Source of the DNA: Gammaproteobacteria bacterium
GTDB taxonomy: Bacteria; Pseudomonadota; Gammaproteobacteria; Eutrophobiales; Eutrophobiaceae
Assembly (NCBI GenBank): GCA_030835405.1
Contig: JAURPG010000106.1
Coordinates: forward strand, 6,067 to 70,066
Reading direction: 5' to 3'
DNA length: 64,000 nt
Below the pieces are notes generated by a model. It saw only the letters and a list, made by a program, of their open reading frames with translations, was not told the DNA's origin and did no database searches. Below are positions 3,125-28,478 of the stretch, one piece after another. How positions within the stretch are numbered: position 1 is the stretch's first letter; the number at the start of each line of letters is the position of its first letter. A program made the position numbers and the translations under genes.

Positions 3125-3825
3125 TTAAATATTGTAGTTATATTTATTTACTGCATCTCTTAACTCACTATACAGCGCATTGTCTTGCAAGTTTTTCCAA
3201 GTCACGCTGTCATCCCCGCTTTTGTCGCCATGTGTATTAAAGTCCTTTGGATGTTGCGCGAGTGCAGAATCTATTTTGGCCCAGGAAGCTTTAAATCCGA
3301 CTATATCAAGTATATTGGCAAGTAGATTACGGTCCAGGTCCTCAATTCTGTAGCGAAAGTAGTTTAGATGTTTCTGACGTTCTGCCTGCTCTGTAATAAG
3401 GTTCCAGTAAATCCAGTATTTTATTGATTTCTCAAACGGTGACCCGGGATTGATATCAGGGCAGTGTTGTAAAGCAAATGCGAGTGTGCGGACTACCCGC
3501 TCACGTTCAAAAAACCTGATTCTGAGCTTTGACCGGACGACTTCTAATGGATCACGTATCTGGTGAAAAACTATCGTCCCGGGGGGAACATATGGGAGAT
3601 ATGGTGCAGCTAACCATGATGATTCCCCCAATTTTGAAATACAGGAATACGCTCCGGGTATACAATTTCCTTTGCCTTTAGGAAAGTTGTTAATGTGTCA
3701 TCCGTTTTCAGGTTCCTTAAATTATAAAAACTTTCTTCGCCACAGGTGCATCCAAGTAAACCTAACAACGTAGCCATATACTGGGTTCCCGATCTACCAC
3801 AACCAGTAATGATAAATTGTTTCAA
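3125..3825 (-). pseudogene. Sulfotransferase split by a frameshift into two ORFs (3610-3825 N-terminal part, 3125-3631 C-terminal part)
   Basis: The N-terminal piece carries the PAPS 5'-phosphosulfate-binding loop (ITGCGRSGTQY). The C-terminal piece carries the 3'-phosphate-binding RDP-x5-S region (IRDPLEVVRSKL). The two pieces are in different frames and overlap at a C5/G5 homopolymer (3625-3629). Confidence 0.55.
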
Positions 3826-6092: not shown

Positions 6093-7271
6093 ATGTCACT
6101 GGTTATAAAAAATGTAATGTTACCAGATTGTGATCTGGCGAATGCTTTCTGTTTATCAACGAATTCTAATTCAGTCTGTTTCCGGAGCGCTGACAGTTTC
6201 GGGAAAAATGATGATGTTCTTGATCTTGATGAAGGCATGATCGCATTTCCGGGTATTATTAATTCTCATGATCACCTTGATTTTAATGATTTCCCATTGC
6301 TTCAGACCAGGATTTACGATGACTATATCGACTGGGCAAAAGACATTCATGAAAATGATAATTTCAAATATCAGATCGCCAGTTCAAAAAAAATTCCTTA
6401 TGAGAATAAAATGTTAACTGGATTAATCAAAAATCTCGTTTGCGGGATTACAACAGTAGTCAATCATGGAATAAAATCCAATACCAGGTATGAAGGAATA
6501 GAAATCCACGATCACTGTAGAATTTTACACTCAGATAAATATGAAACATGGCTGCCGATTAAAATTAATATCCCGTTTAATACCGCACCGGTAACAATAC
6601 ATATAGGTGAAGGCAAGACGGGCAGAGTAAGGCAGGAGATTGGCAGGGTACTGAAGTATAATCTGTTAAATAAAAAAATTATCGGAATACATGGAATAAC
6701 AATGGACTGTGGACAGGCAAAAAAAATCACTGCGCTGGTATGGTGTCCAGAATCGAATATTCAGCTGTATGGAAGGACAGCTTCGGTCGGGGAACTTGGC
6801 AGGTATACATCAATACTATTTGGAACGGATTCGACACTTACAGCTGACTGGAATATATGGAAACACATCAGGACCGCGAGAAATCTGGCGTATTTAGGCG
6901 ACGAGGAATTATTTTATACCTTGAACAGTAACCCGGCCAGGATATGGGGTAAATCATCAGCAGAATGCTTGACTGGTATGCAGGTGCCTGATGTGGTGTT
7001 TGCAAGGCGTAGAAAAAAGGATTACTGGGACAGTTTTTACATGACAGATCCCGAAGTAATTATGCTTGTATTTAAAAATGGCAAACCGGTTTTAATTGAT
7101 CAATCCATTTTCAAAATTTTGCAAAAAAAAATGCCAGAGTATGCAAAGTGGGGAATGATCAGGGTCCAGGATTCAATAAAATATATTCCATCCAGCCTGC
7201 TCAGGCAGTTTCAAAATGGTTATATATTCAAACAGATGCCGGTCGAAATTTTAAACACAAGTATTAACTAA
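6093..7271 (+). CDS. Metal-dependent amidohydrolase (chlorohydrolase/cytosine-deaminase-like superfamily)
   Basis: GIINSHDHLDFN carries the HxH metal-binding motif at the first beta-strand, with further His and Asp residues downstream. Size is 392 aa. Confidence 0.6.
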   Translation: MSLVIKNVMLPDCDLANAFCLSTNSNSVCFRSADSFGKNDDVLDLDEGMIAFPGIINSHDHLDFNDFPLLQTRIYDDYIDWAKDIHENDNFKYQIASSKKIPYENKMLTGLIKNLVCGITTVVNHGIKSNTRYEGIEIHDHCRILHSDKYETWLPIKINIPFNTAPVTIHIGEGKTGRVRQEIGRVLKYNLLNKKIIGIHGITMDCGQAKKITALVWCPESNIQLYGRTASVGELGRYTSILFGTDSTLTADWNIWKHIRTARNLAYLGDEELFYTLNSNPARIWGKSSAECLTGMQVPDVVFARRRKKDYWDSFYMTDPEVIMLVFKNGKPVLIDQSIFKILQKKMPEYAKWGMIRVQDSIKYIPSSLLRQFQNGYIFKQMPVEILNTSIN

Positions 7272-7325: not shown

Positions 7326-8321
7326 ATGCCGGCAAATATGACAGCAGAAGATATTCTTGGATATCAGGGGAACCTGGATCATGAGAGAATTTACCCACTC
7401 CTGGGAGTGACTGTTAAAATTCGAAGTAACGATGTAAAGATAATTAAAAATGCCGATATTGCCCTGGGACACTGGAATAACGCTGGTAATGATTTCGATG
7501 TAGACAATTCAAACTTGTGTCTGGACATCATTTTACAGGAAGAAGCGGAAATTAATTCATCAGGGGAAGAACATTTATTTATTCACAGGTATCGCGATGA
7601 TATATACCTAGCAAATTGTGATAAAAATATACTCGTGGCATTTAGAAATGCAGGCAAGGGACTGGCTTATGTAACTGAAGGTTTGGTTAATGATATTCAG
7701 GGGTTTAACTGGTTTGTCGTTGAGGCATTGTCATTATTTCTCGTGACATATCGACGTCGTGTACCCGTTCATGCGTCAGCTGTAACGAATGGTAAACTGG
7801 CTGTTGCTTTTATGGGGAAAAGCGGTGCTGGTAAATCAAGTTTGGCCTATGTTTTTATGAAGCATGGGTTCGACCTTCTTGCTGAAGATGTGATCTATTT
7901 TGGGATGGAAGACGATTTTAGAATATGGGGAAACTCCACAAAAATCCATTTACTACCAGATGCAATAAAGCTGTTTCCAGAATTATCAAACTGTGTCCCT
8001 GTAAAAAGGCCAAACGGAAAAATTAAAATACAAGTACCGGTAAATGACGTCGGTAAGATAAAACCAGTTCATTGTGTAAAAAATATTGATATCTGCCTGC
8101 TAAAACCGGACCGTAACAGCAGGGACAGCCGGATTGAACCTATTACACCAGATTACCTCAGGGACTATCTATTGTCCTCATTGGAACCGGGTTTTAATAT
8201 TGAACTGGATAGTTTAATGATATCCATGGAAAAGTTACTAAAGCAAAGACTGTACCTTTTAACGGTAGGAAGCGATATTGATGCGGTTCCTGATCTTGTT
8301 TCGGAAATCCAGGATATATAA
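7326..8321 (+). CDS. HPr kinase (HprK) C-terminal-domain-like P-loop protein, the type of predicted peptide/small-molecule kinase found in RiPP and lasso-peptide clusters
   Basis: HASAVTNGKLAVAFMGKSGAGKSSLAYVFMKHGFDLLAEDVIYF contains a Walker A (GxSGxGKS) followed by the L-x-x-DD element typical of the HprK C-terminal domain. The N-terminal half is unrelated to HprK. Confidence 0.6.
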   Translation: MPANMTAEDILGYQGNLDHERIYPLLGVTVKIRSNDVKIIKNADIALGHWNNAGNDFDVDNSNLCLDIILQEEAEINSSGEEHLFIHRYRDDIYLANCDKNILVAFRNAGKGLAYVTEGLVNDIQGFNWFVVEALSLFLVTYRRRVPVHASAVTNGKLAVAFMGKSGAGKSSLAYVFMKHGFDLLAEDVIYFGMEDDFRIWGNSTKIHLLPDAIKLFPELSNCVPVKRPNGKIKIQVPVNDVGKIKPVHCVKNIDICLLKPDRNSRDSRIEPITPDYLRDYLLSSLEPGFNIELDSLMISMEKLLKQRLYLLTVGSDIDAVPDLVSEIQDI

Positions 8322-8420
8322 TACGATAAGCATGTAACTGTTTTATCAAAAAAAGATGAATGAAACATAAAAGTCACGTTTACGAGATGAGTTCTATAAA
8401 TATGAATATGGAGATTTTCA

Positions 8421-9854
8421 GTGGTTGACATACTCCTCGCCCATGCTTTTTATATTACCAATGATACTAAACAGCGTGAAGAAAAGTTTCGCCCATATCC
8501 GCCGCTAGCAACCTTGTATGCTGCAAGTATTTTGAGAGACTCCGGGTATGAAGTCGCACTGTATGATGCGACTCTTGAGCAAAATGAGGATTCATTTCAG
8601 GAAATTTTCAATGATGTTAACCCTCGTTTATTGATTATCTATGAGGACAATTTCAATTTTTTGAGCAAGATGTGCCTGACACATGTAAGGGAAGCCACGT
8701 TACGAATGGCAAAGACCGGAAAAGATGCAGGTACCTCGGTAATTGTATGTAGTTCAGATGCCAGTGATGACCCATCAACCTACCTGGCTTGTGGAGTAGA
8801 TTATGTCATCCTTGGAGAGGGTGATGTAACAGTTAAGGAACTATCAGATAATTTATTGCAACAGTCTTCAATGGACATTGGCACGATTCCCGGTATCGCT
8901 TATATCAATGGAGACAGGGACATTTCCCAGTCACCCAGGCGTATGAACCTTAGAGACCTTGACAGCATTCCTTTTCCTGCCAGAGACCTGGTTGATATTG
9001 AGAATTATAGAGACGCATGGGAAAGCGTACATGGTTATTTTAGCATGAGTATGGTTACCACCCGGGGATGTCCATATGCCTGTACCTGGTGTGCCAAACC
9101 TATCTGGGGAAAAAGCTATGCAGTCAGGTCACCCGAAAATGTTGCCGAAGAACAGGCGTTGTTGAAACAGCATTGTTCACCTGATCATATTTGGTTCATG
9201 GACGATATATTTGGACTTAAACCAGGCTGGATTGAAAGGTATTCACTGGAGGTAAATGCAAGGGAAGCAAATATCCCGTTTATGATACAGACGCGGGCAG
9301 ATTTAATGAATCCCGAAGTCGTTAAAAGCCTTGCCGATGCCAATTGTGAAGAAGTGTGGCTCGGGGCTGAAAGCGGTAGTCAATCGGTCCTTGATTCAAT
9401 GAAAAAGGGTATAACCGTAGAGCAGATTCATGAAGCCCGGCGGTTACTGGGTAATGAGGGTATCAGGACATGTTTTTTTATCCAGTTCGGTTATCCTGGG
9501 GAGACGCTGGAGGACATCAGCTTAACCGTGGACCTGGTACGATCCGCTTTACCAGACAACATAGGCGTCAGCGTAAGTTACCCCCTGCCGGGTACCGAAT
9601 TCCATGAACTTGTTATGAATGAGATTAATGAAAAAACCCACTGGAATGAAAGCAATGATCTTGAAATTATGTTTGAAGGCGCATATGATTCGAGCTATTA
9701 CCGTAAGCTTGGAAAATTCCTGCACCGTGATCTAGATGCCCGCCTGGGTATAAGCAATGAAGATTTGAATGTTTTGCAGTGTGAATGGGAACAGCTTGTT
9801 GATTCAGCACGGAATTATGAAGCCACTGCTTCAGAAACCAGTAATACTGTTTAA
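8421..9854 (+). CDS. B12-binding domain radical SAM enzyme (class B rSAM; probable methyltransferase or other carbon-centred modifier)
   Basis: The N-terminus is a Rossmann-like cobalamin-binding region (ILLAHAF...PPLATLYAASILRDSGYEVALYDA). The rSAM cluster is RGCPYACTWC (CxxxCxxC). The annotated start is GTG. The gene sits in an operon-like array with the next four genes. Confidence 0.8.
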   Translation: MVDILLAHAFYITNDTKQREEKFRPYPPLATLYAASILRDSGYEVALYDATLEQNEDSFQEIFNDVNPRLLIIYEDNFNFLSKMCLTHVREATLRMAKTGKDAGTSVIVCSSDASDDPSTYLACGVDYVILGEGDVTVKELSDNLLQQSSMDIGTIPGIAYINGDRDISQSPRRMNLRDLDSIPFPARDLVDIENYRDAWESVHGYFSMSMVTTRGCPYACTWCAKPIWGKSYAVRSPENVAEEQALLKQHCSPDHIWFMDDIFGLKPGWIERYSLEVNAREANIPFMIQTRADLMNPEVVKSLADANCEEVWLGAESGSQSVLDSMKKGITVEQIHEARRLLGNEGIRTCFFIQFGYPGETLEDISLTVDLVRSALPDNIGVSVSYPLPGTEFHELVMNEINEKTHWNESNDLEIMFEGAYDSSYYRKLGKFLHRDLDARLGISNEDLNVLQCEWEQLVDSARNYEATASETSNTV

Positions 9855-9870
9855 ACACGAGTGAGTATTC

Positions 9871-11277
9871 ATGCCTGACTTAATCCTGACACACGGTTAT
9901 TTCCTGTGTGAAGACCCAAAAGAACAGGAAATTATGAAACCATATGCCCCTCTGGGCCTGATGTATTTGTCTGCATATCTAAAGGGCAAAGGATTTAATG
10001 TCGAAATTTTTGATTCGATGTTTTCAAATCGAGAAACGCTGGAAGAATTTCTCAGAAATAATGCCAATGGTGTCCTTGGCATATATACAAATTTAATTAC
10101 CCGGTCGAGCGTACTCAATATTATTTCAATGGCAAAAAAACATGGATTTCAAGTCATTCTTGGCGGCCCTGAATCTGCAAACTATCCGCAAGAATATCTG
10201 AATCATGGTGCCGACGTGATTGTCCTGGGAGAAGGAGAACAGACCCTGGAAAAACTATTACCTGCCATTCAGAATCCCGGTTCGGCAGGCCTTCAGGCTG
10301 TTGATGGTATCGTTTTTAAAGATAAATCTGGTAACCTGATCACTACTAATCCGAGAATATCACCCAATGATCTTGCTATTTACCCCTGGCCCGACAGGGA
10401 ATCCATAGATATAAGGAAATATCTGCAGGTCTGGCGTGATCATCATGGGCTTGGCAGTATCAGTATGATTACTGCAAGGGGCTGTCCCTATCGTTGCACA
10501 TGGTGTTCCCATGCAGTTTACGGCTACAGCCATCGACGGCGTAAGCCGGCCGATTGTGCCAGTGAGCTTGACTACATCATGAATGAATATTCTCCGGATC
10601 AGATATGGTATGCGGACGATGTATTTACCATAAGCCATCCATGGTTATATGAGTATTCAGCCCAGTTAAAAAACAGGGGATTGAAAGTGCCGTTTGAAAC
10701 AATTTCCCGCGCAGACAGGCTAATGAAACCGGAAGTTTTGGACACGCTTGTAGAGATGGGTTGTGATCGAATCTGGATTGGCTCGGAGAGCGGCAGTCAA
10801 AAAATACTCGATGCAATGCAACGTGATGTGACAGTGGAGCAGATTCAGTGGGCCTCACATGAGCTGAAAAAAAGGGGGATAAAAGTCGGTATGTTTCTTA
10901 TGTGGGGTTACGGGAATGAAACACTTGAGGATATTGAAAAAACAGTGGAACACGTAAAAATTTCTGACCCGGATGTTTTTTTTACTACAATTGCCTATCC
11001 TATTAAAAATACGCCTTTTTATAACGAGTTCAGTGACAGCATAACAATGTCCGGAGATTGGGCTTCGGGTACGGATAGGGATTATAAAATATCAAATCAA
11101 CGGGGCCCTGAATATTATAAGGCTGCTGACATTCTGCTGTTTAATTCTGTTGAGGCTTCCCGTAATCAATATAGCGACCACAAAGAAAGTTTAATACATA
11201 AAAAACTTGCAGATGATGCAAGGTTATACTTACAGGAATATGAACGAAAGCACATCATCAATAAGACAGGTATTTAA
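9871..11277 (+). CDS. B12-binding domain radical SAM enzyme, a tandem paralogue of the upstream gene
   Basis: The architecture is the same: PYAPLGLMYLSAYLKGKGFNVEIFD followed by RGCPYRCTWC (CxxxCxxC). Blocks such as SPDQIWYADDVF match SPDHIWFMDDIF in the upstream paralogue. The gap to the upstream gene is 16 nt. Confidence 0.8.
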   Translation: MPDLILTHGYFLCEDPKEQEIMKPYAPLGLMYLSAYLKGKGFNVEIFDSMFSNRETLEEFLRNNANGVLGIYTNLITRSSVLNIISMAKKHGFQVILGGPESANYPQEYLNHGADVIVLGEGEQTLEKLLPAIQNPGSAGLQAVDGIVFKDKSGNLITTNPRISPNDLAIYPWPDRESIDIRKYLQVWRDHHGLGSISMITARGCPYRCTWCSHAVYGYSHRRRKPADCASELDYIMNEYSPDQIWYADDVFTISHPWLYEYSAQLKNRGLKVPFETISRADRLMKPEVLDTLVEMGCDRIWIGSESGSQKILDAMQRDVTVEQIQWASHELKKRGIKVGMFLMWGYGNETLEDIEKTVEHVKISDPDVFFTTIAYPIKNTPFYNEFSDSITMSGDWASGTDRDYKISNQRGPEYYKAADILLFNSVEASRNQYSDHKESLIHKKLADDARLYLQEYERKHIINKTGI

Positions 11278-12034
11278 TCAGCTTGCTGCACATTACGATA
11301 CGATATTTACAAATACCGATATTGGCAGGATGCTTCGACAACGTACACATGACCTGCTTAATGGAATGTTTACTCCGGGGCAAACAGTTCTTGTTCTAAA
11401 TTGTGGCACCGGTGAAGATGTTATTCACCTGGCCAGGCAGGGCATAAATGTTTTAGCATCGGATAACTCGGAAGAAATGATCAAGTTTGCAAAAATTAAA
11501 GTGAATCAAGCCGGTTTAAATCATATGGTTGAATTCAGGCAGATAAATTTTGATAAACTTGATTACAGCCTTTCCTCTGGAGAAACGTTTGACGGGATAA
11601 TATCTAATTTTGGTGGAATAAATTGCTCCTCAGACATATCGCAGGTAGTAAAAAATATTGCAGATTATCTGCGGCCGGGTGGCAAGCTCTACCTTTGTAT
11701 AATGGGGCAGTTCGTACCATGGGAGTGGTTATACCTGGGGGTAAGAGGGAAGTATAAGAGGATTTATCATAGATTCAGAGGTAGCTGTATATGGAGAGGA
11801 CAGGAAATAAAGTATTATTCCCCGGCTGAAATCGAGACGTATTTGTCGATACATTATCGATCTACTCAATGTAGTGGGCTTGGGTTTCTCATTCCTCCCA
11901 GTTATGCAGGAAAATTGTTCTCAAAATTCCCCCGTGTTTTTTATTTTTTGAACTGGGTTGAGAAACATTTAGAAACTTTTTTCCCAATTCCTTTGCTTAG
12001 TGATCACTTTGTTTTTAAATCAATAAGAAAGTGA
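11240..12034 (+). CDS. Class I SAM-dependent methyltransferase
   Basis: SAM motif I is VLVLNCGTGEDV, and a post-I acidic residue is present. The ORF is open from 11207, but the Met at 11240 avoids most of the overlap with the upstream gene. The stop overlaps the next start (ATGA). Confidence 0.7.
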   Translation: MNESTSSIRQVFNQLAAHYDTIFTNTDIGRMLRQRTHDLLNGMFTPGQTVLVLNCGTGEDVIHLARQGINVLASDNSEEMIKFAKIKVNQAGLNHMVEFRQINFDKLDYSLSSGETFDGIISNFGGINCSSDISQVVKNIADYLRPGGKLYLCIMGQFVPWEWLYLGVRGKYKRIYHRFRGSCIWRGQEIKYYSPAEIETYLSIHYRSTQCSGLGFLIPPSYAGKLFSKFPRVFYFLNWVEKHLETFFPIPLLSDHFVFKSIRK

Positions 12035-12954
12035 AACATTCCCGCGATTGGCAAGGAATATGTCCTGTCTGTAAATCAGAAATAGGAACCCTGACATGGC
12101 CGGGAAAGAATATTGATTGTGGTGATTGTCTGGAATCATTTAAATCAATAGAGGGGATTTATCAGCTTATACAACCAGGGCGTCTCAATGCCTATAAGCA
12201 GTTTCTGGACGATTATACCAGCATAAGAATTGCAGAAGGCCGGGGTGATCATGGCCATGATTACTATTGCCGACTGCCAGAGCCCACTGTGTCGGACCCA
12301 TTATCATGGCAATGGAAAATCAGAAGTAAGAGCTTCAAAACCCTGGTATCTGTACTGGATCTGGAATCTACCAGGCAACGCAGAATCCTTGATCTGGGTG
12401 CCGGAGTGGGGTGGTTGTGTCATCGTGTGGCATCATTGGGGCATTACCCCATAGCAATTGATATCAACATGGATGAAATGGATGGACTCAGGGCAGGAAG
12501 GTTTTATGACAGGAGCTGGCCCTGCATACAGGCTGAATTCGATAACTTGCCCATCCAGAATGAACAGGCAGATTTGGCCATATTCAATGCGAGCTTACAC
12601 TACAGCACAGACTATTACGGTACTCTGAAAGAAGCACTAAGGGTCCTGAGGGGGGATGGGCAGTTAGTGATAATCGATTCACCAATATACAGACGGCCCG
12701 ACAGTGGTATCAATATGAAGTTACAACGACACGAATTTTTTAATAAGGTATACGGTTTTAGATCTGACAGTATTGACAGTATTGAATTCCTGACCTGGGG
12801 AATGCTTGAAGAGTTGGAGAAAAAACTCGAAGTAAAATGGAGGATAATCAGGCCATGGTATGGATTACGATGGGCTATGCGCCCGCTGACATATGCAGTT
12901 AAAGAATCGCGCGAAGCATCAACATTTGCAATTTTAATGGGAACCCGGGCCTGA
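12031..12954 (+). CDS. Methyltransferase with an N-terminal 4-Cys zinc-ribbon (Trm112-like) domain
   Basis: The N-terminus has CPVC...CGDC. Downstream lies SAM motif I, ILDLGAGVGW. The gene is translationally coupled on both sides. Confidence 0.6.
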   Translation: MKHSRDWQGICPVCKSEIGTLTWPGKNIDCGDCLESFKSIEGIYQLIQPGRLNAYKQFLDDYTSIRIAEGRGDHGHDYYCRLPEPTVSDPLSWQWKIRSKSFKTLVSVLDLESTRQRRILDLGAGVGWLCHRVASLGHYPIAIDINMDEMDGLRAGRFYDRSWPCIQAEFDNLPIQNEQADLAIFNASLHYSTDYYGTLKEALRVLRGDGQLVIIDSPIYRRPDSGINMKLQRHEFFNKVYGFRSDSIDSIEFLTWGMLEELEKKLEVKWRIIRPWYGLRWAMRPLTYAVKESREASTFAILMGTRA

Positions 12955-13961
12955 TGAATAAATTGACATCCTTGCCTGCAAACGACGATATGGTTAAACA
13001 ACTACCAATCATGGTTTTAATGCTTAAATCAGATTGCAACTGTCGCTGCACGATGTGTGATATCTGGAAAGGAAATTCCAGCGAGTCACTGGAATATGAT
13101 GGTGTTAAGGATCTGGTGAAGCAACTTCAATCTCTAGATACACATGAGATTGTACTCAGTGGCGGCGAGCCATTGATGCACAGGGAAATCGAGTCGGTTT
13201 GCAGGTTATTGTCGACAATGAATTTCAGAGTCACCCTGATTACTACAGGATTGTTACTCAAACGTCATGCGCAATGGATTAGTAAATATATCGATCAAAT
13301 ATACATCAGTCTTGATGGACCAGAAAAAGTACATAATTCTATCAGGAACATTCCAGGTGCTTATGTAAAAATTAAAAAAGGTGTGGAAGCAGTCCGGCAT
13401 TACAGACCGGACATTAATATTGGAGCACGTTGTACCATACAAAAACAAAATTACAGGTATATCGGTGATACTGTCGATGCAGCCAGGGAGTTGGGTATGA
13501 ACACCATCAGTTTCCTGGCAGCAGATGTCAAGGCTGAAGTTTTTGGCAGGACCAGTGACTGGAAAGATAACGGGATTGCCCTGACCGGTACAGAGCTTTC
13601 TGAGCTTGAAGATATTCTTCAGCAATTTTTCATAAATTATAAAAATGATTTTGATTCAGGATTTATAGTTGAAGATAGAAATAAATTACAGACAAAACTA
13701 CTAGATTATTATCACGCCCTCAGTACGGACAGGAATTTCCCCGGGGTGGATTGTAACGCACCATGGGTTTCAGCAGTCGTAGAAACAAACGGAAAAGTAA
13801 GGCCCTGTTTTTTTCATAAACCCTATGATGAAGCTCTGGATAATAAATCCGTCAATGAGATCATTAATTCTGATACGGCAAAAAAATGGAGAAAAGAACT
13901 GGACGTCAAAACCAACGATATCTGTCGAAGCTGTGTTTGTTCGCTTTCGTATGGCGTATGA
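12954..13961 (+). CDS. Radical SAM enzyme with a C-terminal SPASM/twitch-like Cys cluster
   Basis: The rSAM cluster is CNCRCTMC (C-x3-C-x2-C). The C-terminal region has additional cysteines (C...C...CRSCVC) compatible with auxiliary Fe-S cluster ligation. Confidence 0.7.
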   Translation: MNKLTSLPANDDMVKQLPIMVLMLKSDCNCRCTMCDIWKGNSSESLEYDGVKDLVKQLQSLDTHEIVLSGGEPLMHREIESVCRLLSTMNFRVTLITTGLLLKRHAQWISKYIDQIYISLDGPEKVHNSIRNIPGAYVKIKKGVEAVRHYRPDINIGARCTIQKQNYRYIGDTVDAARELGMNTISFLAADVKAEVFGRTSDWKDNGIALTGTELSELEDILQQFFINYKNDFDSGFIVEDRNKLQTKLLDYYHALSTDRNFPGVDCNAPWVSAVVETNGKVRPCFFHKPYDEALDNKSVNEIINSDTAKKWRKELDVKTNDICRSCVCSLSYGV

Positions 13962-14039
13962 GCACACAAAATATTGTGCGGTTATTCGTCTGTAGAACGT
14001 GTCCGATAATTATAGCCTGCAACGATCAGTATTAAGTAT

Positions 14040-15230
14040 TTGTATTATTATTCATTAATCATATTGAGTCAGTTAGATTTGAGTCCGTCACTGAACATCG
14101 TTTTTATCACCCCGGGAGGTGTGGACAGGAGTGGCCGTGAAAGGGTCATACCACACTTTTTATGGCTGCTTGAAAAGCTCTCGTTAAATCATAATGTAAA
14201 AGTGATAAGTTTATTTCAGTATGATTCTGCCTGTGAATATTCACTTAACGGCATACAGATTTCTGTTCCCGGGAAGATACGGCAAGACTGGAAAACTGAT
14301 AAGGAACCCGGGACAGTATTGAATGATTTGTACGAAGCATGTATCGCATACCTGGATCCTGCTGAACCGGTTGACATTGTCCATGGCTTGTGGGGATTTC
14401 AGGCCGGTTGGATTGCCACCAGAATTGCATCTTCGTTAAAGATTCCTTCTGTAGTGAGTTTGATGGGAGCCGAGTTTGTATCTTTTCCGGACATCAAATA
14501 TGGTGGGCAGTACTGGGAACATCAACGGTTGACATTAAATGATACTTTAAAAAATGCCACTGCATTAACTGTTGCAAGTCACTTTATGCAAGATATGGCT
14601 TCCGCATACAGTATAGAAACTGATTACATACCTTTTGGCGTACATGAGTCCTGCTTTCAGGACAACGGGGCACTGGATATTCCAACCTGGCGACTCCTGA
14701 CTGTTGCGAGTATAAATAGAATAAAGGATTTTTTTACCTTGATTGAGGCCTTCAGGATAGTTGTTGATGAAATCAATGATGTTCAACTGGATATTATTGG
14801 TGAAGATGTCATGGATGAGGAAATACAGGCGTTATCTGACAGATTATGTCTGACTAATCATGTTAACTTTCATGGATTCCTGCCAAATGACGAGATACGG
14901 AAATATTTCCAGAGGGCACATCTGTATGTGGTTACCTCGATAAACGAAACCGGACCAATAGCCATGCTGGAAGCTGCGGCTTGTAAAGTAGCAACTGTGG
15001 GAACCAAAGTTGGATATGTATCTGACTGGGACGGTAAACGCTCACTGGCTGTGGAGTCCCAGAGCCCTGGTAAGCTTGCAGTGCAGATAATCTATCTGAT
15101 AAAGCACGAACCAGTCCGAAAAAATCTCGGTATGGCCGCATATAAATGGGTTCGGGAGTATGATGTAAACTGGACTTCTAACAGACTAACTAAACTTTAT
15201 CTTGACCTGATAAATAATCATATGGATTAA
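14040..15230 (+). CDS. Glycosyltransferase family 4 (group 1); the true start is probably downstream of the annotated ATG
   Basis: The C-terminal region has ETGPIAMLEAAACKVATVGT, the E-x7-E GT4 signature. The first 15 or so codons (MYYYSLIILSQLDL...) look non-coding. A TTG near IVFITPGG is a plausible alternative start. Confidence 0.65.
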   Translation: MYYYSLIILSQLDLSPSLNIVFITPGGVDRSGRERVIPHFLWLLEKLSLNHNVKVISLFQYDSACEYSLNGIQISVPGKIRQDWKTDKEPGTVLNDLYEACIAYLDPAEPVDIVHGLWGFQAGWIATRIASSLKIPSVVSLMGAEFVSFPDIKYGGQYWEHQRLTLNDTLKNATALTVASHFMQDMASAYSIETDYIPFGVHESCFQDNGALDIPTWRLLTVASINRIKDFFTLIEAFRIVVDEINDVQLDIIGEDVMDEEIQALSDRLCLTNHVNFHGFLPNDEIRKYFQRAHLYVVTSINETGPIAMLEAAACKVATVGTKVGYVSDWDGKRSLAVESQSPGKLAVQIIYLIKHEPVRKNLGMAAYKWVREYDVNWTSNRLTKLYLDLINNHMD

Positions 15231-15313
15231 ACTGGGTGTCACATAGTATTCAAGCAGTGGTAACAGTTCATTACCTTATTTTTCACAAATATATTTAAAA
15301 CGTTTAATCAGGC

Positions 15314-15338
15314 AGGGAGAATGGGACCCTCTCCCTTT
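15314..15338 (+). terminator. Candidate intrinsic terminator hairpin downstream of the GT4 gene
   Basis: A 7-bp stem agggaga/tctccct with a 9-nt loop is followed by TTTAT. Confidence 0.3.
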
Positions 15339-15526
15339 ATGTGAACCCGGAATTGCTTTGCATTTTAGATAGCACTTACTCGTAACAGGGACTAAAAGCA
15401 AGATGGAAAAACTGATTTTTAGAGGTCTTTAGCGGGATAATCCCTGTCTGTTTCAATGGTAATTAACTATATCTATGATATACAATGATTTACACTCAAT
15501 TGGCATTATGAATCGGGATAGCTAAT

Positions 15527-16462
15527 TTGAAAACACATAATATTCTTGTCCTTTTGACTGCTTGTGCAATATTGTCCTTGTTCTTGCCAGATGTCGCCTA
15601 TGCCCAGGCAACGCAGAATCAGGCAGGCACATATATCGGCACCCAGGTTTGTTCGTCCTGCCACAATGACCTTTCAGATCACTGGTCCCATACAGTGCAT
15701 TCAAAGATTTTCATGAATAACCCGGGAAATGAAATTGAGCGCCGGGGCTGTGAATCATGCCATGGCCCCGGCTCAGAGCATATAATAGATCCAACGGCGG
15801 TGGATAAAATAATCAGGTTTTCCCAAAATGCACCAAGCCCAACCGGGGAACAGAATCGATCATGTCTCCAGTGTCATGCCGGCGGAAATCGAATCCACTG
15901 GTCAAGCTCAATACACGAAAGTAATGATTTGGCCTGCGCTGATTGTCATAACCCGATGGCAAACTTCTCCTCTGTTAATCTACTGGTGCAAAACAATATT
16001 AATGAGACCTGTTTCATGTGTCACAAGGAACAACGTAGCCAGTTTAACAGGCGATCACATATGCCGTTGAATGAAGGTAAAATGTCATGCACTGACTGCC
16101 ATAACCCCCATGGCAGTAATACGGATAGCCTGCTGAAAACTGATAATGTGAATCAGACCTGTTTTCAATGCCATGCGGAAAAAAGAGGTCCTTTCCTCTT
16201 TGAACATGCCCCGGTAACCGATAATTGCCTGAACTGCCATGAACCCCATGGTTCGAACCATGAAAAATTACTGCTTACAGCCCGCCCAATGTTATGTCAG
16301 CAGTGCCACACATCCATCGGGCATATGAATGACCTGTTTACATCAGGAAATCTTGCAACGGGTAGTCGCCCGGACATACGCCTAATTGGGAGAAGTTGCC
16401 AGAATTGTCATACGCAGATCCATGGATCCAACCATCCGGCAGGATCAAAATTCCAACGGTAG
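15527..16462 (+). CDS. Periplasmic decaheme c-type cytochrome of the MtrA/MtoA/PioA family
   Basis: Ten CxxCH haem-binding motifs are spread over 311 aa (CSSCH, CESCH, CLQCH, CADCH, CFMCH, CTDCH, CFQCH, CLNCH, CQQCH, CQNCH). A signal peptide is present. The apparent start codon is TTG. Confidence 0.8.
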   Translation: MKTHNILVLLTACAILSLFLPDVAYAQATQNQAGTYIGTQVCSSCHNDLSDHWSHTVHSKIFMNNPGNEIERRGCESCHGPGSEHIIDPTAVDKIIRFSQNAPSPTGEQNRSCLQCHAGGNRIHWSSSIHESNDLACADCHNPMANFSSVNLLVQNNINETCFMCHKEQRSQFNRRSHMPLNEGKMSCTDCHNPHGSNTDSLLKTDNVNQTCFQCHAEKRGPFLFEHAPVTDNCLNCHEPHGSNHEKLLLTARPMLCQQCHTSIGHMNDLFTSGNLATGSRPDIRLIGRSCQNCHTQIHGSNHPAGSKFQR

Positions 16463-16483
16463 TATCCATATCAAATTCATCAG

Positions 16484-18973
16484 ATGAAAATTAACGTCCA
16501 TATATGTAAATTTCCCATTCATGCATTGATATGTATTATTTTAACACCCGGGTTACTTCAATCTGCTGAGTTACCGGAAAGATCAAATCATCTCAATTCC
16601 GGGGTATCTTCGAAAGGGAGCCTGGTGGCAAAGAGTGACTTTAACAAGTTCCAGGAAAGATTAAGAACTCCCGGTGGTTTTCTGATACCCGATGCCCCTG
16701 AACAGCAGTCCTTAAAATCTGTCTCTGACAGTGAGTGGTTATATTCACTATCTATTAATGCCGGGTACATTAATGCTTCCGGTAATGAAAATTCTGCCCA
16801 GTTTAAAGAATACGGGGACTGGGATAATGGACTCGTTTTGAAACGATTTTCAGGTGTACTTGAAAATCCCGGGACTGCCCACTACTTCAAGTTAGGCGGT
16901 GGGAGTTTGGGCAGAAACGATCAGTTTTTGAATTTTTCTTCCGGTAAATATGGAAAATATAATTTTTCCCTGGCGTTTGATGCTACGCCTCATGATTTTG
17001 CAAATAATGCCCAGGTGCTTTGGGATGGCGCAGGAAGCAATATCCTTACATTGCCAGACGGCCTCGTCCCCGGAAACAGTACGGCAGCAGATGTCACTAT
17101 GGCGCTTCAGGTGATTGATGGTTCTGATATAAAACTTGAAAGGGACAAGCTCAGTGTTGCTTTTGACGTCGATTATCTACCAACTCTGAATTTCCATGCT
17201 GAGGGTTCTGTCGAATGGCGGGATGGTGGCAGGCCTATTGGTGGAGGATTTTCCTATCCTGGTTCCGGCCAGGTCACTGAAATAATTGAGGCGATAGATT
17301 ACACGACCTATGAAATCAATTTAGGTCTCGCATACAGCGGTACAGGCAGGCAGCTGAATTTTTCGTATACGGGATCCCTGTTCGTAAATAATTACAGCGC
17401 CCTGACGTGGGAAAATCCAGGCGTTTCACCGTTTACGGCATATGCACCGCGAAGGGGCCGTTATGCGCTTGCACCTGACAACGAGTTTCATAATTTTAGA
17501 GGTGATTTTGTAACCAAATTACCATTCTGGAATAGTAGGTTAACTGTAGTGTCATCGTATTCTATTTCAAGCCAGAATGATCTATTGATTCCTCCAACAA
17601 TCAGCTCTGGAACGATTACAAGCGGGCCCAGTACCATTAATCTCAATCTTTGGAATACGGTTGAGGCACTTTCCACAGACAGGGCCAATGCAGAAATAAG
17701 AAATTTGAATTTACAGTCAAGAATTATTTTAAACCCTGTCAGGAAAATAAGGTTAAGGGGCGAAGTAAAATATACTGATAGGGACAACAGGACAGATTAT
17801 ACAGCATTAAATCCACTTACCGGGGAGTATGGATATATTGTAATGGATGGTGGCCTGGATGCATTAGCACCATCCCTGACAGGTATTTATAATCCTTTAC
17901 GTCCGGGAAGCCGGGTCAGGTTTAAAAATATTCCTTTTGACAAAGACACATTCCTGATTACTGCAGGGGTGGATTACCTGGTGACCAATAAACTGAAGAT
18001 GGGTTTGAGATATTATCGGGACCATCAGGATTATCGTCACAGGGAAGTGGATAAACTAATCGAGGACAGAATTAAGCTTAACCTTGTTTATCGGGACCGT
18101 AAAATAGGCACGCTCAGGACGTCATATGAATACCGTGACAGGGATAGTGATGGTTATAATTTTAACCCGTACGAGGAATTCTATACTTCGTCGTTACCTG
18201 CTTATATACCTCGCCTTGCAGATGGCGATGATCCTCATACGTTGAGTGATTTGCGGAAGTATGACGTCGCAAGCAGAAAGAAACATACATTAAAAGGCAA
18301 ATACAATTCTATCATTGTTGAAAATCTTGATCTTACACTAACCGGTCAATATTCAGATGAAAATTTTGATGCACAGTATGGATTAAGGGAAAAAGATTCA
18401 TTATCTGCAAACCTGGATTTGAACGTATATATGGGTTTAAATAAAAGTATATATGCTTATTACTCATTTCAATCCAGCAAAAGTTATTATGCAAATATAA
18501 ATAATGCAGGCGGGGCATTTTCTGATCCATTTGCCGGTGGACCCCGGTATCCTCTGGATCGTGCGTGGACTGGAAGTGCGAGGGAAAAAAACAATAGCAT
18601 TGGGGCAGGGATTAATTTTGGTGTTGACGATGTATTAATTAATCTGAGTTATACGTACATCAGGTCCAGGTCCAGGTTTCAATATAATTTTAATTCAACT
18701 GCAGCTTTTAATAATACATTAACCGAACAGGAAGTTGGCACCGGGTTTCCCGACCAGATATTCAGCAATCATCACCTGCAATCAAACATAACGTGGTCGG
18801 TTCGAGAAAATACAAAACTGAATTTTCTCTACAGGTATGAGACTGAAAAAGTAAGTGATTTTCATTACCAGGGGATAACAAATTCTATTGTTGATGACTC
18901 AATTCTGTTGCTTGCCTTGCCGGAAAATTTTAATAGTCATGTGGTAGGGTTATTTATTGAGAACAATTTTTGA
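16484..18973 (+). CDS. Outer-membrane beta-barrel porin of the MtrB/MtoB/PioB family, sheath for the decaheme cytochrome
   Basis: It is 829 aa and lies 21 nt downstream of the decaheme gene. It has a signal peptide, the alternating hydrophobic/aromatic composition of beta-barrels rich in Y/N/G/S/T, and a C-terminal ...IENNF ending in an aromatic residue as outer-membrane proteins typically do. Confidence 0.65.
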   Translation: MKINVHICKFPIHALICIILTPGLLQSAELPERSNHLNSGVSSKGSLVAKSDFNKFQERLRTPGGFLIPDAPEQQSLKSVSDSEWLYSLSINAGYINASGNENSAQFKEYGDWDNGLVLKRFSGVLENPGTAHYFKLGGGSLGRNDQFLNFSSGKYGKYNFSLAFDATPHDFANNAQVLWDGAGSNILTLPDGLVPGNSTAADVTMALQVIDGSDIKLERDKLSVAFDVDYLPTLNFHAEGSVEWRDGGRPIGGGFSYPGSGQVTEIIEAIDYTTYEINLGLAYSGTGRQLNFSYTGSLFVNNYSALTWENPGVSPFTAYAPRRGRYALAPDNEFHNFRGDFVTKLPFWNSRLTVVSSYSISSQNDLLIPPTISSGTITSGPSTINLNLWNTVEALSTDRANAEIRNLNLQSRIILNPVRKIRLRGEVKYTDRDNRTDYTALNPLTGEYGYIVMDGGLDALAPSLTGIYNPLRPGSRVRFKNIPFDKDTFLITAGVDYLVTNKLKMGLRYYRDHQDYRHREVDKLIEDRIKLNLVYRDRKIGTLRTSYEYRDRDSDGYNFNPYEEFYTSSLPAYIPRLADGDDPHTLSDLRKYDVASRKKHTLKGKYNSIIVENLDLTLTGQYSDENFDAQYGLREKDSLSANLDLNVYMGLNKSIYAYYSFQSSKSYYANINNAGGAFSDPFAGGPRYPLDRAWTGSAREKNNSIGAGINFGVDDVLINLSYTYIRSRSRFQYNFNSTAAFNNTLTEQEVGTGFPDQIFSNHHLQSNITWSVRENTKLNFLYRYETEKVSDFHYQGITNSIVDDSILLLALPENFNSHVVGLFIENNF

Positions 18974-18997
18974 ACTAATTTGAAATTATTATAATAA

Positions 18998-19927
18998 ATG
19001 GGCAAGAAAAATTTTTTATCCGTAATCGTTATATGTTACAACATGATCCGGGAGGCCCCTCGAACGGTCTATTCATTATCGAAAAAATATCAGAAAAGAA
19101 TAAGACTGGAAGATTATGAAATTATCGTCATAGATAATAACTCTAGCGAACTGCTTAACAAGGAAGAAATAGAAGGAATTGGTCCCAATATTACCTATTA
19201 TTACCATGAATCCGGATCTGCCTCGCCCGTGAGTTCAATTAATTTTGGTATAGGGAAGTCCAAAGGTGAATATGTCGGCATCTTGATCGACGGGGCCCGT
19301 ATCGTAAGTCCAATGGTCCTTAACTGGGCGTTATATTCGCTGTAGACTCTTTATAATCCGTTTGTATCAACATTGAGCTGGTATTTGGGTGAAGATCAAT
19401 AGTTTATATCTGTTCCAAAAGGCTATTCCAGGGAATATGAAGATCAACTACTGGATGAAATTGACTGGAGATCCAATGGTTACAAGTTATTCTCCATATC
19501 AACATTTGCAGGCTCATCGAAGCCGGGTTTTTTTTAGTCAATTTCAGAAAGCAATGGTGTATTTTTAAGTAAAAATTTATATGAACGTGTTGGTAGATAT
19601 GATCCCGAATTTGATCTGCCAGGCGGCGGTCTATGCAACCTGGATTTTTATAAACGGGCCGTCGAATTCCCGGAAGTGACTCATGTAATATTATTGGGAG
19701 AAGGGACATTTCACCAGCACCACTATGGTATCACCATGAGCAGTCGTTCAATTGATGTCATAAACTTGCTCGACAAGTACCATGATCAATATAAGGAAAT
19801 AAGGAAAAGTGAATTTACCAGCCCAAAAACTAATCCGGTTTTTGTTGGAAATATTCCAGATAGTGTATTGCCATTTATTCAGGAATCTATTGTCAATGCT
19901 ACCGATAACAATCCTACTTGTGAATAA
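18998..19927 (+). pseudogene. Family 2 glycosyltransferase: one continuous 310-codon frame interrupted by three in-frame TAG codons (19343-19345, 19400-19402, 19535-19537)
   Basis: The N-terminus (SVIVICYNMIREAP...EIIVIDNNSS) and C-terminus (LYERVGRYDPEFDLPGGGLCNLDFYKRA) are GT2-like. ORFs 18998-19345 and 19676-19927 are in the same frame. The stretches between them translate cleanly with no frameshift, and the only interruptions are three TAG codons. Confidence 0.6.
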
Positions 19928-19957
19928 AGTTTTAGTTAGTCGAGATATTTTATTCTG

Positions 19958-21181
19958 ATGAATGATAATACATATGCAAGCAATAATGGTGAACTTGTTC
20001 TACTTTCTACCCGCCAACATATGGGCCGGGAAACGGCGGAAAAAATCAGTCTGTTATTTAAAACAGAACTGGACTGGAAAAAAATAGTTTCAATTGCAAA
20101 AAGAAACAAAGTCGTTCACCTGGTAGATAAAACCATGACCGAACACTTTGACGGCATGGTTGATTCAGAAGATTTGCAGGCACTTACTGATGAATCGCAG
20201 GTGCATTTTAAAAGTAATGAGGATAGTCTTGATTTGTTATTGGATATCAAGACACTGTTGTTGTCTGAAAGCATCCCCGTCATTTTCTTTAAGGGTATTA
20301 TCTTTGCCCATGTGTATAACAAGGACTATAAATTTCGAACACAGGGCGATATTGACATACTGGTCAGACCGGAAGATTTCCTGAAAGCAAGGGATATACT
20401 AGTAAGAAATGGTTTTGAGTCTGTTTATTTCGGTCATGCTGAAGTGTCAACTGTCCAGGCACAACTGGGCAGGAGCGACAGGCGAGCCAGCGTTGACTTG
20501 CACTATGGGGTCACCCCCCAGTACCAGCAGACCAATATGGATGAGGCATTAAGCGGAAGTAAATTTGACAAAAAATACCGTAATAAAATCGTCAAAAACC
20601 GTACCTACTGGTTTTGTCAATTTCAAACTGAAGAAATCTGGAAACGCAAAATCCAGATTGAGATAGAAGGCGAAACCATTACCACGCTGTCCCACGAAGA
20701 TACGCTCCTGGTGGCTGTCATTCATGCGGCAAAAGAAAACTGGAGATCGATGAGCAGAATAAGTGATATCACTGCGATTATAGAAACAAGCGGAAACCTG
20801 AACTGGGAAATTATCTATGAAACGGTAAGTGGATTGGGCTTTTTAAAAAAGTTTTATCTCGGTATCAGGTTAGCAAACGAGATGTATGATGTTGAATTGC
20901 CTGTAAATGTAATCAGGATGATGAATAAACATGGTTCAAAGTATCTCGCCAGACAGATTATCTTTAGACTGACCCTGGATAACTTTACTGTTGATATGGA
21001 AGAATTCAGGCGAATCGTTGCAATTATGACGATGGATTCAATCACAGATTTTTTCAGGTACCTGCAATATGTATTCAATACTCCGGCGGGTCCAACCGGC
21101 AAGGAGATAACCCAGGGAAATTTCCTGGGCTTTTTAAAGGTATTATCCGGTCAATATATACGGAAATTTCTATCCCGCTAA
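19958..21181 (+). CDS. Nucleotidyltransferase-family protein (uncharacterised NTP_transf_5-like type), as found beside HprK-like kinases and sulfotransferases in RiPP clusters
   Basis: It has the QGDIDILVRPEDF acidic motif characteristic of this nucleotidyltransferase fold. Size is 407 aa. Confidence 0.5.
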   Translation: MNDNTYASNNGELVLLSTRQHMGRETAEKISLLFKTELDWKKIVSIAKRNKVVHLVDKTMTEHFDGMVDSEDLQALTDESQVHFKSNEDSLDLLLDIKTLLLSESIPVIFFKGIIFAHVYNKDYKFRTQGDIDILVRPEDFLKARDILVRNGFESVYFGHAEVSTVQAQLGRSDRRASVDLHYGVTPQYQQTNMDEALSGSKFDKKYRNKIVKNRTYWFCQFQTEEIWKRKIQIEIEGETITTLSHEDTLLVAVIHAAKENWRSMSRISDITAIIETSGNLNWEIIYETVSGLGFLKKFYLGIRLANEMYDVELPVNVIRMMNKHGSKYLARQIIFRLTLDNFTVDMEEFRRIVAIMTMDSITDFFRYLQYVFNTPAGPTGKEITQGNFLGFLKVLSGQYIRKFLSR

Positions 21182-21333
21182 CCCCATCTATCTGGCAATA
21201 ATACCTTCAATACGACAAAAAGTTATGTAACTAACTGATTTCAATATAATTTGCCGGATTATGCATAAGGTTTTATACTCGGGTATATATGGTGCAGCTG
21301 TCACTATCAGGAAATCCAGGAGACACTTATCCA

Positions 21334-28454: not shown

Positions 28455-28478
28455 AATACAACAATACTTTGTTGTATT
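28455..28478 (+). terminator. Perfect 10-bp palindrome (aatacaacaa-tact-ttgttgtatt) overlapping the stop of the small membrane-protein gene
   Basis: This is a direct reverse-complement match. It could be a terminator or an operator. Confidence 0.3.

Follow-up and report, generated by a model that had tools for sequence, protein, structure and literature searches.

Porin-cytochrome conduits of the MtrAB, PioAB and MtoAB type are the best-understood route by which bacteria exchange electrons with minerals and electrodes, and are usually treated as self-sufficient modules of two or three proteins. We analysed a stretch of 64,000 nucleotides from a Gammaproteobacteria bacterium of the Eutrophobiaceae (assembly GCA_030835405.1, contig JAURPG010000106.1, of 80 kb, positions 6,067 to 70,066; referred to below as the window), in which genes for a conduit of this type stand in one array with genes for an HprK-like kinase, radical S-adenosylmethionine (SAM) enzymes, methyltransferases, glycosyltransferases and a nucleotidyltransferase of the NTP_transf_5 family. 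We consider it highly probable that this array represents an enzyme cassette whose link to MtrAB is conserved, and that it is no lasso-peptide locus.

The paeninodin (pade) and pseudomycoidin (psm) lasso clusters resemble the locus in that they contain an HprK-family kinase and an 'uncharacterised NTP transferase' (NTP, nucleoside triphosphate), and in that some are flanked by sulfotransferase genes (PMC8498205, PMC6993621). In these clusters, HprK-type kinases phosphorylate the C-terminal serine of the lasso precursor, and the psmN-type NTP transferase adds hexose to the phosphate (PMC8498205, PMC6993621). A sequence-only reading of the window had stated that such a kinase, NTP transferase and sulfotransferase typically decorate lasso peptides; this agrees with the two papers and is sound for part of the family. 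The chemical logic, in which a hydroxyl is phosphorylated and a group is then added to the phosphate, is plausible for the window as well. However, no precursor, cyclase, B1/B2 protein or ABC exporter turned up among the open reading frames (ORFs) of the window that were scanned with Pfam (54 in number, including every ORF of at least 250 amino acids (aa); seven housekeeping ORFs of 150-210 aa lay outside the scan). The window kinase is no more than a distant relative of HPrK (25 bits), and it is accompanied here by radical SAM enzymes, methyltransferases, glycosyltransferases and MtrAB.

The conduit genes agree with those of the MtrAB, PioAB and MtoAB systems in that a DmsE-family decahaem cytochrome gene and an MtrB_PioB porin gene are adjacent and co-directional. 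Unlike in those systems, the pair is embedded between glycosyltransferase genes in an enzyme operon, and the island is without MtrC/OmcA, CymA and PioC. The cassette, in turn, is missing from other MtrAB loci, that of Nitrosococcus halophilus being an example. In glycan loci, kinase plus nucleotidyltransferase modules, with a transporter (LicA/LicC for phosphocholine, AmgK/MurU, Fkp, HddA/HddC), yield a unit activated with a nucleoside diphosphate, on which a transferase then draws. An acidobacterial operon of kinase, outer-membrane barrel and NTP_transf_5::MFS fusion, described below, matches the layout of LicA/LicC-type modules as these are generally understood, but the enzyme families are unrelated, the window is without a transporter, and the activity of the pair on sugars is only putative. 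The HprK-related kinase A and B systems (TIGR04352, TIGR04355) likewise comprise P-loop kinases of the HPrK superfamily that are defined by gene neighbourhood and have no known substrates; the window kinase, however, scored 23.7 and 26.0 bits against these models (cut-off 200), and the partner genes of these systems were not seen in the window. For the SPASM and B12-binding radical SAM enzymes, the closest relatives of solved structure come from aminoglycoside and nucleoside antibiotic pathways (AprD4, BlsE, OxsB, GenK-type methylases), where such enzymes are combined with GT4 glycosyltransferases, kinases and methyltransferases. Here the similarity is at the superfamily level only (E 1e-10 to 1e-13), no aminotransferases or cyclitol synthases are present, and the context is chromosomal and surface-associated, in contrast to an antibiotic cluster.

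The component families of the locus are all known; the chemistry of the kinase-nucleotidyltransferase pair has a precedent in lasso peptides, and MtrAB is well studied. What appears to be new is the genetic coupling of a radical SAM, methyltransferase, kinase and glycosyltransferase cassette to a porin-cytochrome conduit, of which no description was found in the literature searched. That search was of limited scope and its outcome is absence of evidence only: it returned no pairing of MtrAB, or of MtoA and MtoB, with radical SAM enzymes, no combination of porin-cytochrome, radical SAM and glycosyltransferase genes, and nothing on NTP_transf_5, the sole occurrence of PF14907 being in a survey of phosphonates, where it is mentioned in an unrelated connection.

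Linkage of the enzyme cassette to MtrA and MtrB

The core array of the window lies on one strand and consists, in this order, of genes for an amidohydrolase, the kinase, two B12-binding radical SAM enzymes, two methyltransferases, a SPASM radical SAM enzyme, a group-1 glycosyltransferase (GT1), MtrA, MtrB, a family-2 glycosyltransferase (GT2) and the NTP_transf_5 protein. To its left, a sulfotransferase gene and a second GT1 gene are divergently transcribed. The GC content is 0.38-0.44 at 2-22 kb, compared to ca. 0.50 in the immediate flanks on both sides. The kinase, the nucleotidyltransferase and the sulfotransferase are parts of one low-GC, fast-evolving island of ca. 19 kb (ca. 2.0-21.2 kb). 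The MtrA-type protein (15527-16462, forward strand; Pfam Paired_CXXCH_1, 122.7 bits) is a periplasmic decahaem c-type cytochrome with ten CxxCH motifs, whose homologues are named as DmsE family. Its gene is followed at a distance of 21 bp, in the same direction, by the gene for an outer-membrane porin of the MtrB/PioB type (16484-18973, forward strand; MtrB_PioB, 342 bits), and the two form a porin-cytochrome module.

Forty-three genome loci (designated by L numbers, as are the other loci mentioned) were retrieved solely by similarity to the kinase. A decahaem cytochrome gene was found beside the kinase cassette in eight lineages, namely that of the window and those of L005/L087, L008/L061, L011, L055, L057, L058 and L037, whose kinases are 56, 46, 43, 41, 45, 33 and 25% identical to the window kinase, respectively. 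Because the kinases of the cytochrome-linked loci are only 23-56% identical to one another, we regard the eight lineages as independent. An MtrB-family porin is also encoded in six of the eight; L057 is a fragment at a contig end, and its sequence stops at the cytochrome gene.

The order in L005 is GT1, sulfotransferase, NAD-epimerase, amidohydrolase, kinase, two B12-binding radical SAM enzymes, two methyltransferases, SPASM enzyme, GT1, MtrA and MtrB. In L087 and L088, which belong to the same lineage, MtrB is followed by an intact GT2 gene, NTP_transf_5 and then DUF1592, DUF1552 and ankyrin genes like those of the window, the whole array being on one strand with gaps of 34-38 bp between MtrB, GT2 and NTP_transf_5. 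NTP_transf_5, MtrB and MtrA lie upstream of an L008-type cassette in L061, and a priming Bac_transf gene directly follows GT1 in L008. L011, L055, L057 and L058 show the linkage of cytochrome and cassette with differing gene order and orientation. In L037 (Acidobacteriaceae), genes for a decahaem cytochrome and a 683-aa protein lie beside those for GT1, kinase, NTP_transf_5, SPASM enzyme, amidohydrolase, methyltransferases and B12-binding radical SAM enzymes. The 683-aa protein was rejected as an MtrB-family member by hidden Markov model (HMM) search; judging by its signal peptide and C-terminal aromatic residue, it is probably another outer-membrane barrel.

A reciprocal check seeded with MtrA sampled two named genomes. 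In Nitrospirillum sp. BR 11163 (L086), genes for an amidohydrolase (36% identity), a SPASM enzyme (42%), B12-binding radical SAM and methyltransferase proteins lie 2-10 kb from MtrAB, with no kinase gene in the stretch examined, while no cassette was found within 10 kb of MtrAB in Nitrosococcus halophilus. This Nitrospirillum isolate makes the idea of a cassette-conduit connection genetically testable. Acidipila sp. EB88 (L040) encodes the kinase together with a portion of the cassette.

MtrB-family porins are rare genes. Since they are rare, and since the linkage is kept through divergence and rearrangement, the proximity of cassette and MtrB is not due to chance. No other partners are linked to this clade of kinases as consistently as MtrA and MtrB. 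The sequence-only reading had treated them as irrelevant and had seen in the locus a set for tailoring peptides made on the ribosome and modified post-translationally (RiPPs) whose scaffold is missing or encoded elsewhere, a view that our data do not support; its alternative, recruitment of the trio to a different scaffold, is the one favoured by the evidence. Because the linkage recurs with rearranged order in several phyla, the enzyme cassette and the porin-cytochrome pair form a selected functional unit and are not a lasso locus. The support for this anatomical claim is much stronger than that for anything said on the substrate.

A lasso locus was also rejected by direct search. No Asn_synthase-like lasso cyclase (PF00733) was found among the 54 window ORFs scanned, and no Asn_synthase occurred among recurrent neighbours of the MtrAB-linked clade. 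A transglutaminase-like leader protease (B/B2) and a PqqD-like RiPP recognition element (RRE, B1) were absent both from the ORFs scanned and from the Pfam tables of the related loci, and the island yielded no leader protease, RRE or dedicated exporter. The absence of lasso B/C enzymes, claimed from the sequence alone, is thus borne out for the ORFs scanned, and no conserved precursor turned up. When small ORFs (18-130 aa) outside large genes were clustered across 21 cassette loci, none was conserved beyond near-identical or closely related loci, and tblastx of the intergenic regions of nine MtrAB-linked loci revealed no conserved coding segment beyond close relatives, with the exception of a methyltransferase gene that ORF picking had missed; very short or fast-evolving precursor peptides could escape both searches.

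Enzymes of the cassette

The kinase (7326-8321, forward strand; 331 aa) carries the motifs GKSGAGKSS and LLAEDVIYF. It scored 25.5 bits against Pfam Hpr_kinase_C (PF07475), under the gathering threshold of 33.3, and 21.7 bits against the HPrK/P equivalog model TIGR00679 (cut-off 240). A profile built from 21 homologues matched the HPrK structure 1jb1 (E 4.6e-7) over the region containing the histidine, the P-loop and the aspartate, and H149, the P-loop residues G167, K170 and S171, and D188 were invariant across the homologues. A Foldseek search with the AlphaFold2 model (pLDDT 88) returned whole phosphoenolpyruvate carboxykinase (PEPCK) structures (E 1e-8) and the catalytic domain of HprK/P (1kkl). 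The HPr-kinase-like P-loop protein called from the sequence is therefore present in motif, with profile and fold in agreement, though it is sub-threshold in Pfam. Modelling indicates a real kinase of the HprK/PEPCK fold that belongs to a distant branch and is not HPrK/P itself; the conserved residues suggest that it is probably active. The tight clade around it is rare: among 1.84 billion proteins, only ca. five 50%-identity representatives exceeded 300 bits, and 271 were found at E<=1e-30. In L088, from a sister lineage strain, the kinase gene (1462-2473) is split into parts of 208 and 48 aa, while the L087 copy is intact (336 aa). L011 encodes two paralogous HprK-like kinases (10001-12814) that are 48% identical and have a TetR-family regulator between them; this locus additionally contains genes for a flavin reductase, a sulfotransferase and a PhyH dioxygenase.

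The GDIDILV nucleotidyltransferase predicted at 19958-21181 (forward strand) was readily assigned to NTP_transf_5 (PF14907), with 142 bits against a cut-off of 31.2 and an alignment covering profile positions 2-248 of 249. Profile searches for the PF14907 and HprK families had been proposed as a check, and the family assignments of this protein and of the kinase held. No relative of the NTP_transf_5 profile was found in the PDB, and the single-sequence AlphaFold model (pLDDT 34.5) was unusable for fold comparison. In the window the gene is 11.6 kb from that of the kinase; it adjoins MtrB or GT2 in L011, L061 and L087, while in L037, as in many further loci, its neighbour is the kinase gene.

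Two sulfotransferases using 3'-phosphoadenosine 5'-phosphosulfate (PAPS) had been listed with the kinase and the nucleotidyltransferase. One of them is recognised by HMM search as a PAPS-type sulfotransferase (PF13469/PF00685; 5165-5947, reverse strand; Sulfotransfer_3, 54.4 bits, cut-off 27, and Sulfotransfer_1), and its L005 orthologue is 56% identical. The other (3125-3825, reverse strand) is retained as a motif-level call only, and both lie outside the 7326-21181 segment. The latter gene is split by a frameshift into overlapping ORFs of 71 aa (3610-3825) and 168 aa (3125-3631) in different frames; their translations contain a GCGRSGT loop resembling a 5'-phosphosulfate-binding motif and an IRDPLEVVRS stretch resembling a 3'-phosphate-binding motif, while the fused protein had no Pfam or PDB match. 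Since the identical split is common to the near-identical second assembly L001 (97-100% identity), it is probably genuine and not an assembly error.

The sequence-only reading was also right about radical SAM enzymes, of which there are three. The B12-binding enzymes 1 (8421-9854, forward strand; Radical_SAM, 79 bits, and B12-binding) and 2 (9871-11277, forward strand; same assignment by Pfam) are encoded next to each other. The best score of enzyme 1, below cut-off, was against the NCBIfam model for the methyl-coenzyme M reductase (MCR) glutamine C-methyltransferase, and the B12-binding enzymes also gave sub-cut-off scores against HpnJ, HpnR, ladderane-lipid and BchE models. PDB relatives of enzyme 2 were CysS, AprD4 and OxsB. 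No close homologue of the B12-binding radical SAM enzyme was found in a plasmid collection. The SPASM enzyme (12954-13961, forward strand; Radical_SAM, Fer4_12 and SPASM) was most similar among PDB entries to the cytosylglucuronate decarboxylase BlsE (E 1.7e-10), with further matches to PapB, anSME and CteB-type maturases. Its CxxxCxxC motif is at residues 28-35 with no N-terminal RRE extension; because the motif begins at residue 28, there is no room for a fused RRE.

Between the B12-binding enzymes and the SPASM enzyme are two class I SAM methyltransferases on the forward strand, one at 11207-12034 (Methyltransf_25/31/11), whose true start is probably near 11240, where alignment to the L087 orthologue begins, and one at 12031-12954 (Methyltransf_11), which has an N-terminal CxxC...CxxC segment resembling a zinc ribbon. 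The amidohydrolase (6093-7271, forward strand) is of the deaminase type (ATZ/TRZ, methylthioadenosine (MTA)/S-adenosylhomocysteine (SAH) deaminase group). It has the full HxH/H/HxxE/H/D set (H59-x-H61, H146, H170-x-x-E173, H200 and D246), invariant in 14 homologues, and its profile best matched the adenosine, MTA/SAH and guanine deaminase group (E 2e-21 to 1e-12), including 4dyk/4gbd (2e-21), the MTA/SAH deaminase 4f0r (1e-14) and TM0936 (6e-14).

Both GT1 proteins are of the GT4 type. The one at 14040-15230 (forward strand; Glycos_transf_1, 92.9 bits), with group-1 glycosyltransferases (2jjm, 3mbo, 3c4q/3c48) and TarM as PDB relatives, is conserved in L005, L008, L037 and L058 and is a core member of the cassette; the one at 3822-4976 (reverse strand; Glycos_transf_1, 60.6 bits) is 60% identical to its L005 orthologue. 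The GT2 gene (18998-19927, forward strand; Glycos_transf_2 over the first 115 aa) aligns in one frame and without indels to the intact 304-aa GT2 of L087 (70% identity), with three in-frame TAG codons (19343, 19400 and 19535), each at a glutamine of the orthologue (CAG to TAG). Such an interruption was seen in no other gene of the window. Either three amber mutations knocked the gene out very recently, or it is read through by suppression. Together with the split sulfotransferase-like gene and the split kinase gene of L088, GT2 is one of the accessory genes that show decay.

Other homes of the pair and candidate functions

Among the 43 kinase loci, NTP_transf_5 was encoded within 10 kb of the kinase in 30, and within two genes in at least 19; this co-occurrence is more than chance. 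GT1 was present in 25 of the loci and a B12-binding radical SAM enzyme in 17. Twenty-one carry neighbour families whose representatives match models for polysaccharide export or polymerisation, namely Wza-like Poly_export/SLBB, Wzz/GNVR, Wzi, Wzy_C and Polysacc_synt_3 (flippase). In several Acidobacteria, the kinase forms an operon with a TonB-dependent-type outer-membrane barrel (1070-1190 aa) and an NTP_transf_5::MFS fusion of ca. 815 aa (L020, 9695-16595; L025, 6303-13391; L028, 9965-16679). Stop and start codons overlap or abut; in L025 the barrel gene is upstream of the kinase gene, while in L020 and L028 it stands between the other two. Genes for GTP cyclohydrolase II, for a PhyH dioxygenase and for a UDPGT-type transferase are additionally present in some acidobacterial cassettes. 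Candidate fusions of an HprK-like kinase with NTP_transf_5 (L016, L042 and L045) were not confirmed and proved to be separate overlapping ORFs. Lasso clusters are thus one of several homes of the kinase/NTP_transf_5 pair. The range of the pair, documented biochemically only in lasso peptides, is widened here, mainly to polysaccharide-type loci, which suggests that its part in lasso peptides is a specialised case of a phospho-decoration module of broader use.

We tentatively favour, at somewhat less than an even chance, a pathway that tailors a surface glycoconjugate and is genetically coupled to the porin-cytochrome conduit. Its product would be sugar-based: a sugar activated with a nucleotide, or else a glycan that is lipid-linked or displayed on the surface. 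The kinase would phosphorylate a hydroxyl group, and from the phosphate NTP_transf_5 would form a phosphodiester of the nucleotidyl or glycosyl type, in the manner of PsmK and PsmN acting on the serine of a lasso peptide. C- and O-methyl groups would be installed by the B12-binding radical SAM enzymes and the methyltransferases, while the SPASM enzyme might carry out a radical rearrangement or decarboxylation of a sugar. GT1 and GT2 would transfer the unit, the sulfotransferase would sulfate it, and the amidohydrolase might clear the SAH or 5'-deoxyadenosine made by the five SAM-consuming enzymes. The product would work at the cell surface with MtrAB, for example as a matrix that would anchor or insulate the conduit or keep it free of mineral. 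A precedent is Geobacter, which needs extracellular polysaccharide to anchor its cytochromes. The glycan is favoured because the nearest solved relatives of the enzymes act on sugars, nucleosides and other small molecules, and because glycosyltransferases, a sulfotransferase, an epimerase, Bac_transf and, in distant relatives, Wza, Wzz, Wzi, Wzy and flippase families recur. The island also resembles a surface-polysaccharide locus, since it combines low GC, proteins divergent relative to the flanks, and decaying accessory genes. Linkage of cassette and conduit across phyla hints that some accessory product, in all likelihood a surface glycan with tailored groups, is relevant to the working or survival of the conduit at the cell surface. 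A stronger version, in which the cassette would be a dedicated MtrAB accessory system (for maturation of the conduit or for a glycan or cofactor bound to it) on which extracellular electron transfer depends, seems to us rather doubtful; if true, it would add a previously unrecognised porin-cytochrome component common to Gamma- and Alphaproteobacteria and Acidobacteriota.

Several points weigh against a glycan. B12-binding radical SAM enzymes, a SPASM enzyme and methyltransferases together are also the classic enzyme set of RiPPs. Since no cassette enzyme reached the cut-off of a curated equivalog (NCBIfam) model, all scores being far below, activities are assigned, from sequence comparison, at the superfamily level. 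The Pfam scan of the window island revealed no flippase, polymerase, chain-length regulator or exporter, so that the hallmark genes of a Wzx/Wzy- or Wza/Wzc-type polysaccharide locus are missing from it. All characterised HprK-family kinases target a serine of a protein or peptide (HPr, lasso precursors; PMC8498205, PMC6993621), and methyltransferases like PrmA, of a family best known for protein methylation, are encoded in some cassette loci (L011, L057 and L086). In picocyanobacteria (L051, 2045-11721; L052, 8226-19954; metagenome-assembled genomes of marine Synechococcus and Prochlorococcaceae), genes for NTP_transf_5, kinase and Sulfotransfer_1 are contiguous and lie near that for a 512-aa Asn_synthase-family protein, in L051 also near GT2 and ABC exporter genes; these distant relatives of the trio appear by gene content to be in a lasso-like setting, and by analogy may represent a B-less lasso-like cluster of the Stanieria kind (PMC6993621). 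Lastly, an equally good reading of the tight MtrAB linkage is that the substrate is the conduit proteins or a cofactor for them. The cassette might mature a protein or peptide in the cytoplasm before export, be it MtrA or MtrB, an accessory redox protein or a small precursor whose gene lies elsewhere. A serine would then be phospho-glycosylated by the kinase and nucleotidyltransferase, as happens in pseudomycoidin, and the radical SAM enzymes would methylate or cross-link side chains, like anaerobic sulfatase maturases acting on exported proteins. Peptides are the sole biochemical precedents for the pair, and the best match of B12-binding enzyme 1 to the MCR glutamine C-methyltransferase, the maturase matches of the SPASM enzyme (PapB, anSME, CteB-type), the PrmA-like methyltransferases, the persistent position of the cassette beside cytochrome and porin genes and the cyanobacterial trio next to Asn_synthase and ABC exporter genes agree with this. 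We nevertheless judge it unlikely. A peptide substrate is disfavoured because neither small ORFs nor intergenic coding segments proved to be conserved in the searches of 9-21 cassette loci, and because no RRE/PqqD, leader peptidase, cyclase or dedicated exporter was found and the SPASM enzyme is without an RRE extension. Moreover, MtrA ends in ...KFQR and MtrB in ...ENNF, neither with the C-terminal serine that lasso kinases use, and glycosyltransferases, epimerase, Bac_transf and sulfotransferases are hard to fit into a pathway that acts on a protein before export.

A small molecule or lipid as the product is, in our estimate, quite unlikely. It could be a methylated, possibly GTP- or nucleoside-derived redox cofactor or shuttle for MtrAB, or a modification of an outer-membrane lipid or glycolipid, with the kinase and nucleotidyltransferase activating an intermediate by LicA/LicC or F420-type logic. 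Such a product would fit the acidobacterial GTP cyclohydrolase II, PhyH dioxygenase and UDPGT-type glycosyltransferase, the flavin reductase of L011, an amidohydrolase of the purine/adenosine deaminase type, a kinase fold shared with PEPCK, which is a small-molecule kinase, the scores of the B12-binding enzymes against HpnJ, HpnR, ladderane-lipid and BchE models, and the NTP_transf_5::MFS fusions, which imply a small transported substrate. But neither the window nor most MtrAB-linked loci encode GTP cyclohydrolase II, PhyH or flavin reductase, which are therefore not core, the NCBIfam scores are far below cut-offs and no transporter is encoded in the window island, while at least one GT1 is core and the distant relatives have genes for polysaccharide export around them. 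That the genes share no function, the trio being unrelated passengers of a variable island and MtrAB merely sitting in the same hot spot, is very improbable. The low GC and decaying genes of the island, a left edge whose content differs between relatives, the 11.6 kb between kinase and nucleotidyltransferase genes and the Nitrosococcus halophilus MtrAB with no cassette within 10 kb could be read in this way; however, the linkage is kept down to 25-33% kinase identity and through several rearrangements in 8-9 lineages of three major taxa, the kinase and nucleotidyltransferase are paired in 30 of 43 loci, and the genes of the acidobacterial operons have overlapping stop and start codons.

Island borders and flanking genes

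Proteins encoded in the island are 54-81% identical to those of the L005/L087 relative (MtrA 81%, MtrB 64%), while SecD of the same relative is 89% identical and the genes flanking the island are 85-92% identical. Allelic divergence of an island between conserved flanks is a pattern typical of surface-antigen loci. As this comparison of flank and island identity places both island edges inside the window, a lasso cluster lying just upstream of position 1 would be unlikely to belong to the unit.

At the left edge, a SRAP peptidase gene (1337-1990, reverse strand; Pfam) is followed by a 47-aa remnant of a cpYpsA-family gene (2011-2154) that marks the left junction of the variable island; the gene is intact in L005 (165 aa). 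The content of this edge differs, with a metallophosphoesterase (2322-3107, forward strand; Metallophos, 66 bits) and the split sulfotransferase-like gene in the window versus alanine dehydrogenase and epimerase in L005. Since L005 is without the metallophosphoesterase at that position, membership of this gene in the unit is uncertain. Scans for promoters and terminators in the window were uninformative, as sites were no more frequent than in shuffled sequence.

The island is followed on the forward strand by a DUF1592/DUF1552 pair (21289-25090; Pfam), in which the DUF1592 protein has a cytochrome-c-like N-terminus, and by a gene for a 519-aa ankyrin-repeat protein (25118-26677). Because these genes are 85-92% conserved in the L087 relative, they appear to be core genes and not members of the island. 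The remainder of the window is gammaproteobacterial housekeeping (queA-tgt, secDF, pdxB, hisD, the bc1 complex and rsmH-ftsI-murE-murF-mraY). A gene of the MbnB/TglH/ChrH family (DUF692; 30151-31044, 83.9 bits) overlaps by 4 bp a 305-aa gene without a family match; upstream of it lie a hydrophobic ORF of 106 aa and an amidase gene (28591-30120) whose product has an N-terminal RRDFLK motif resembling a twin-arginine translocation signal. A precursor was not identified there, and the region (28134-31958) may be a separate peptide-modification system.

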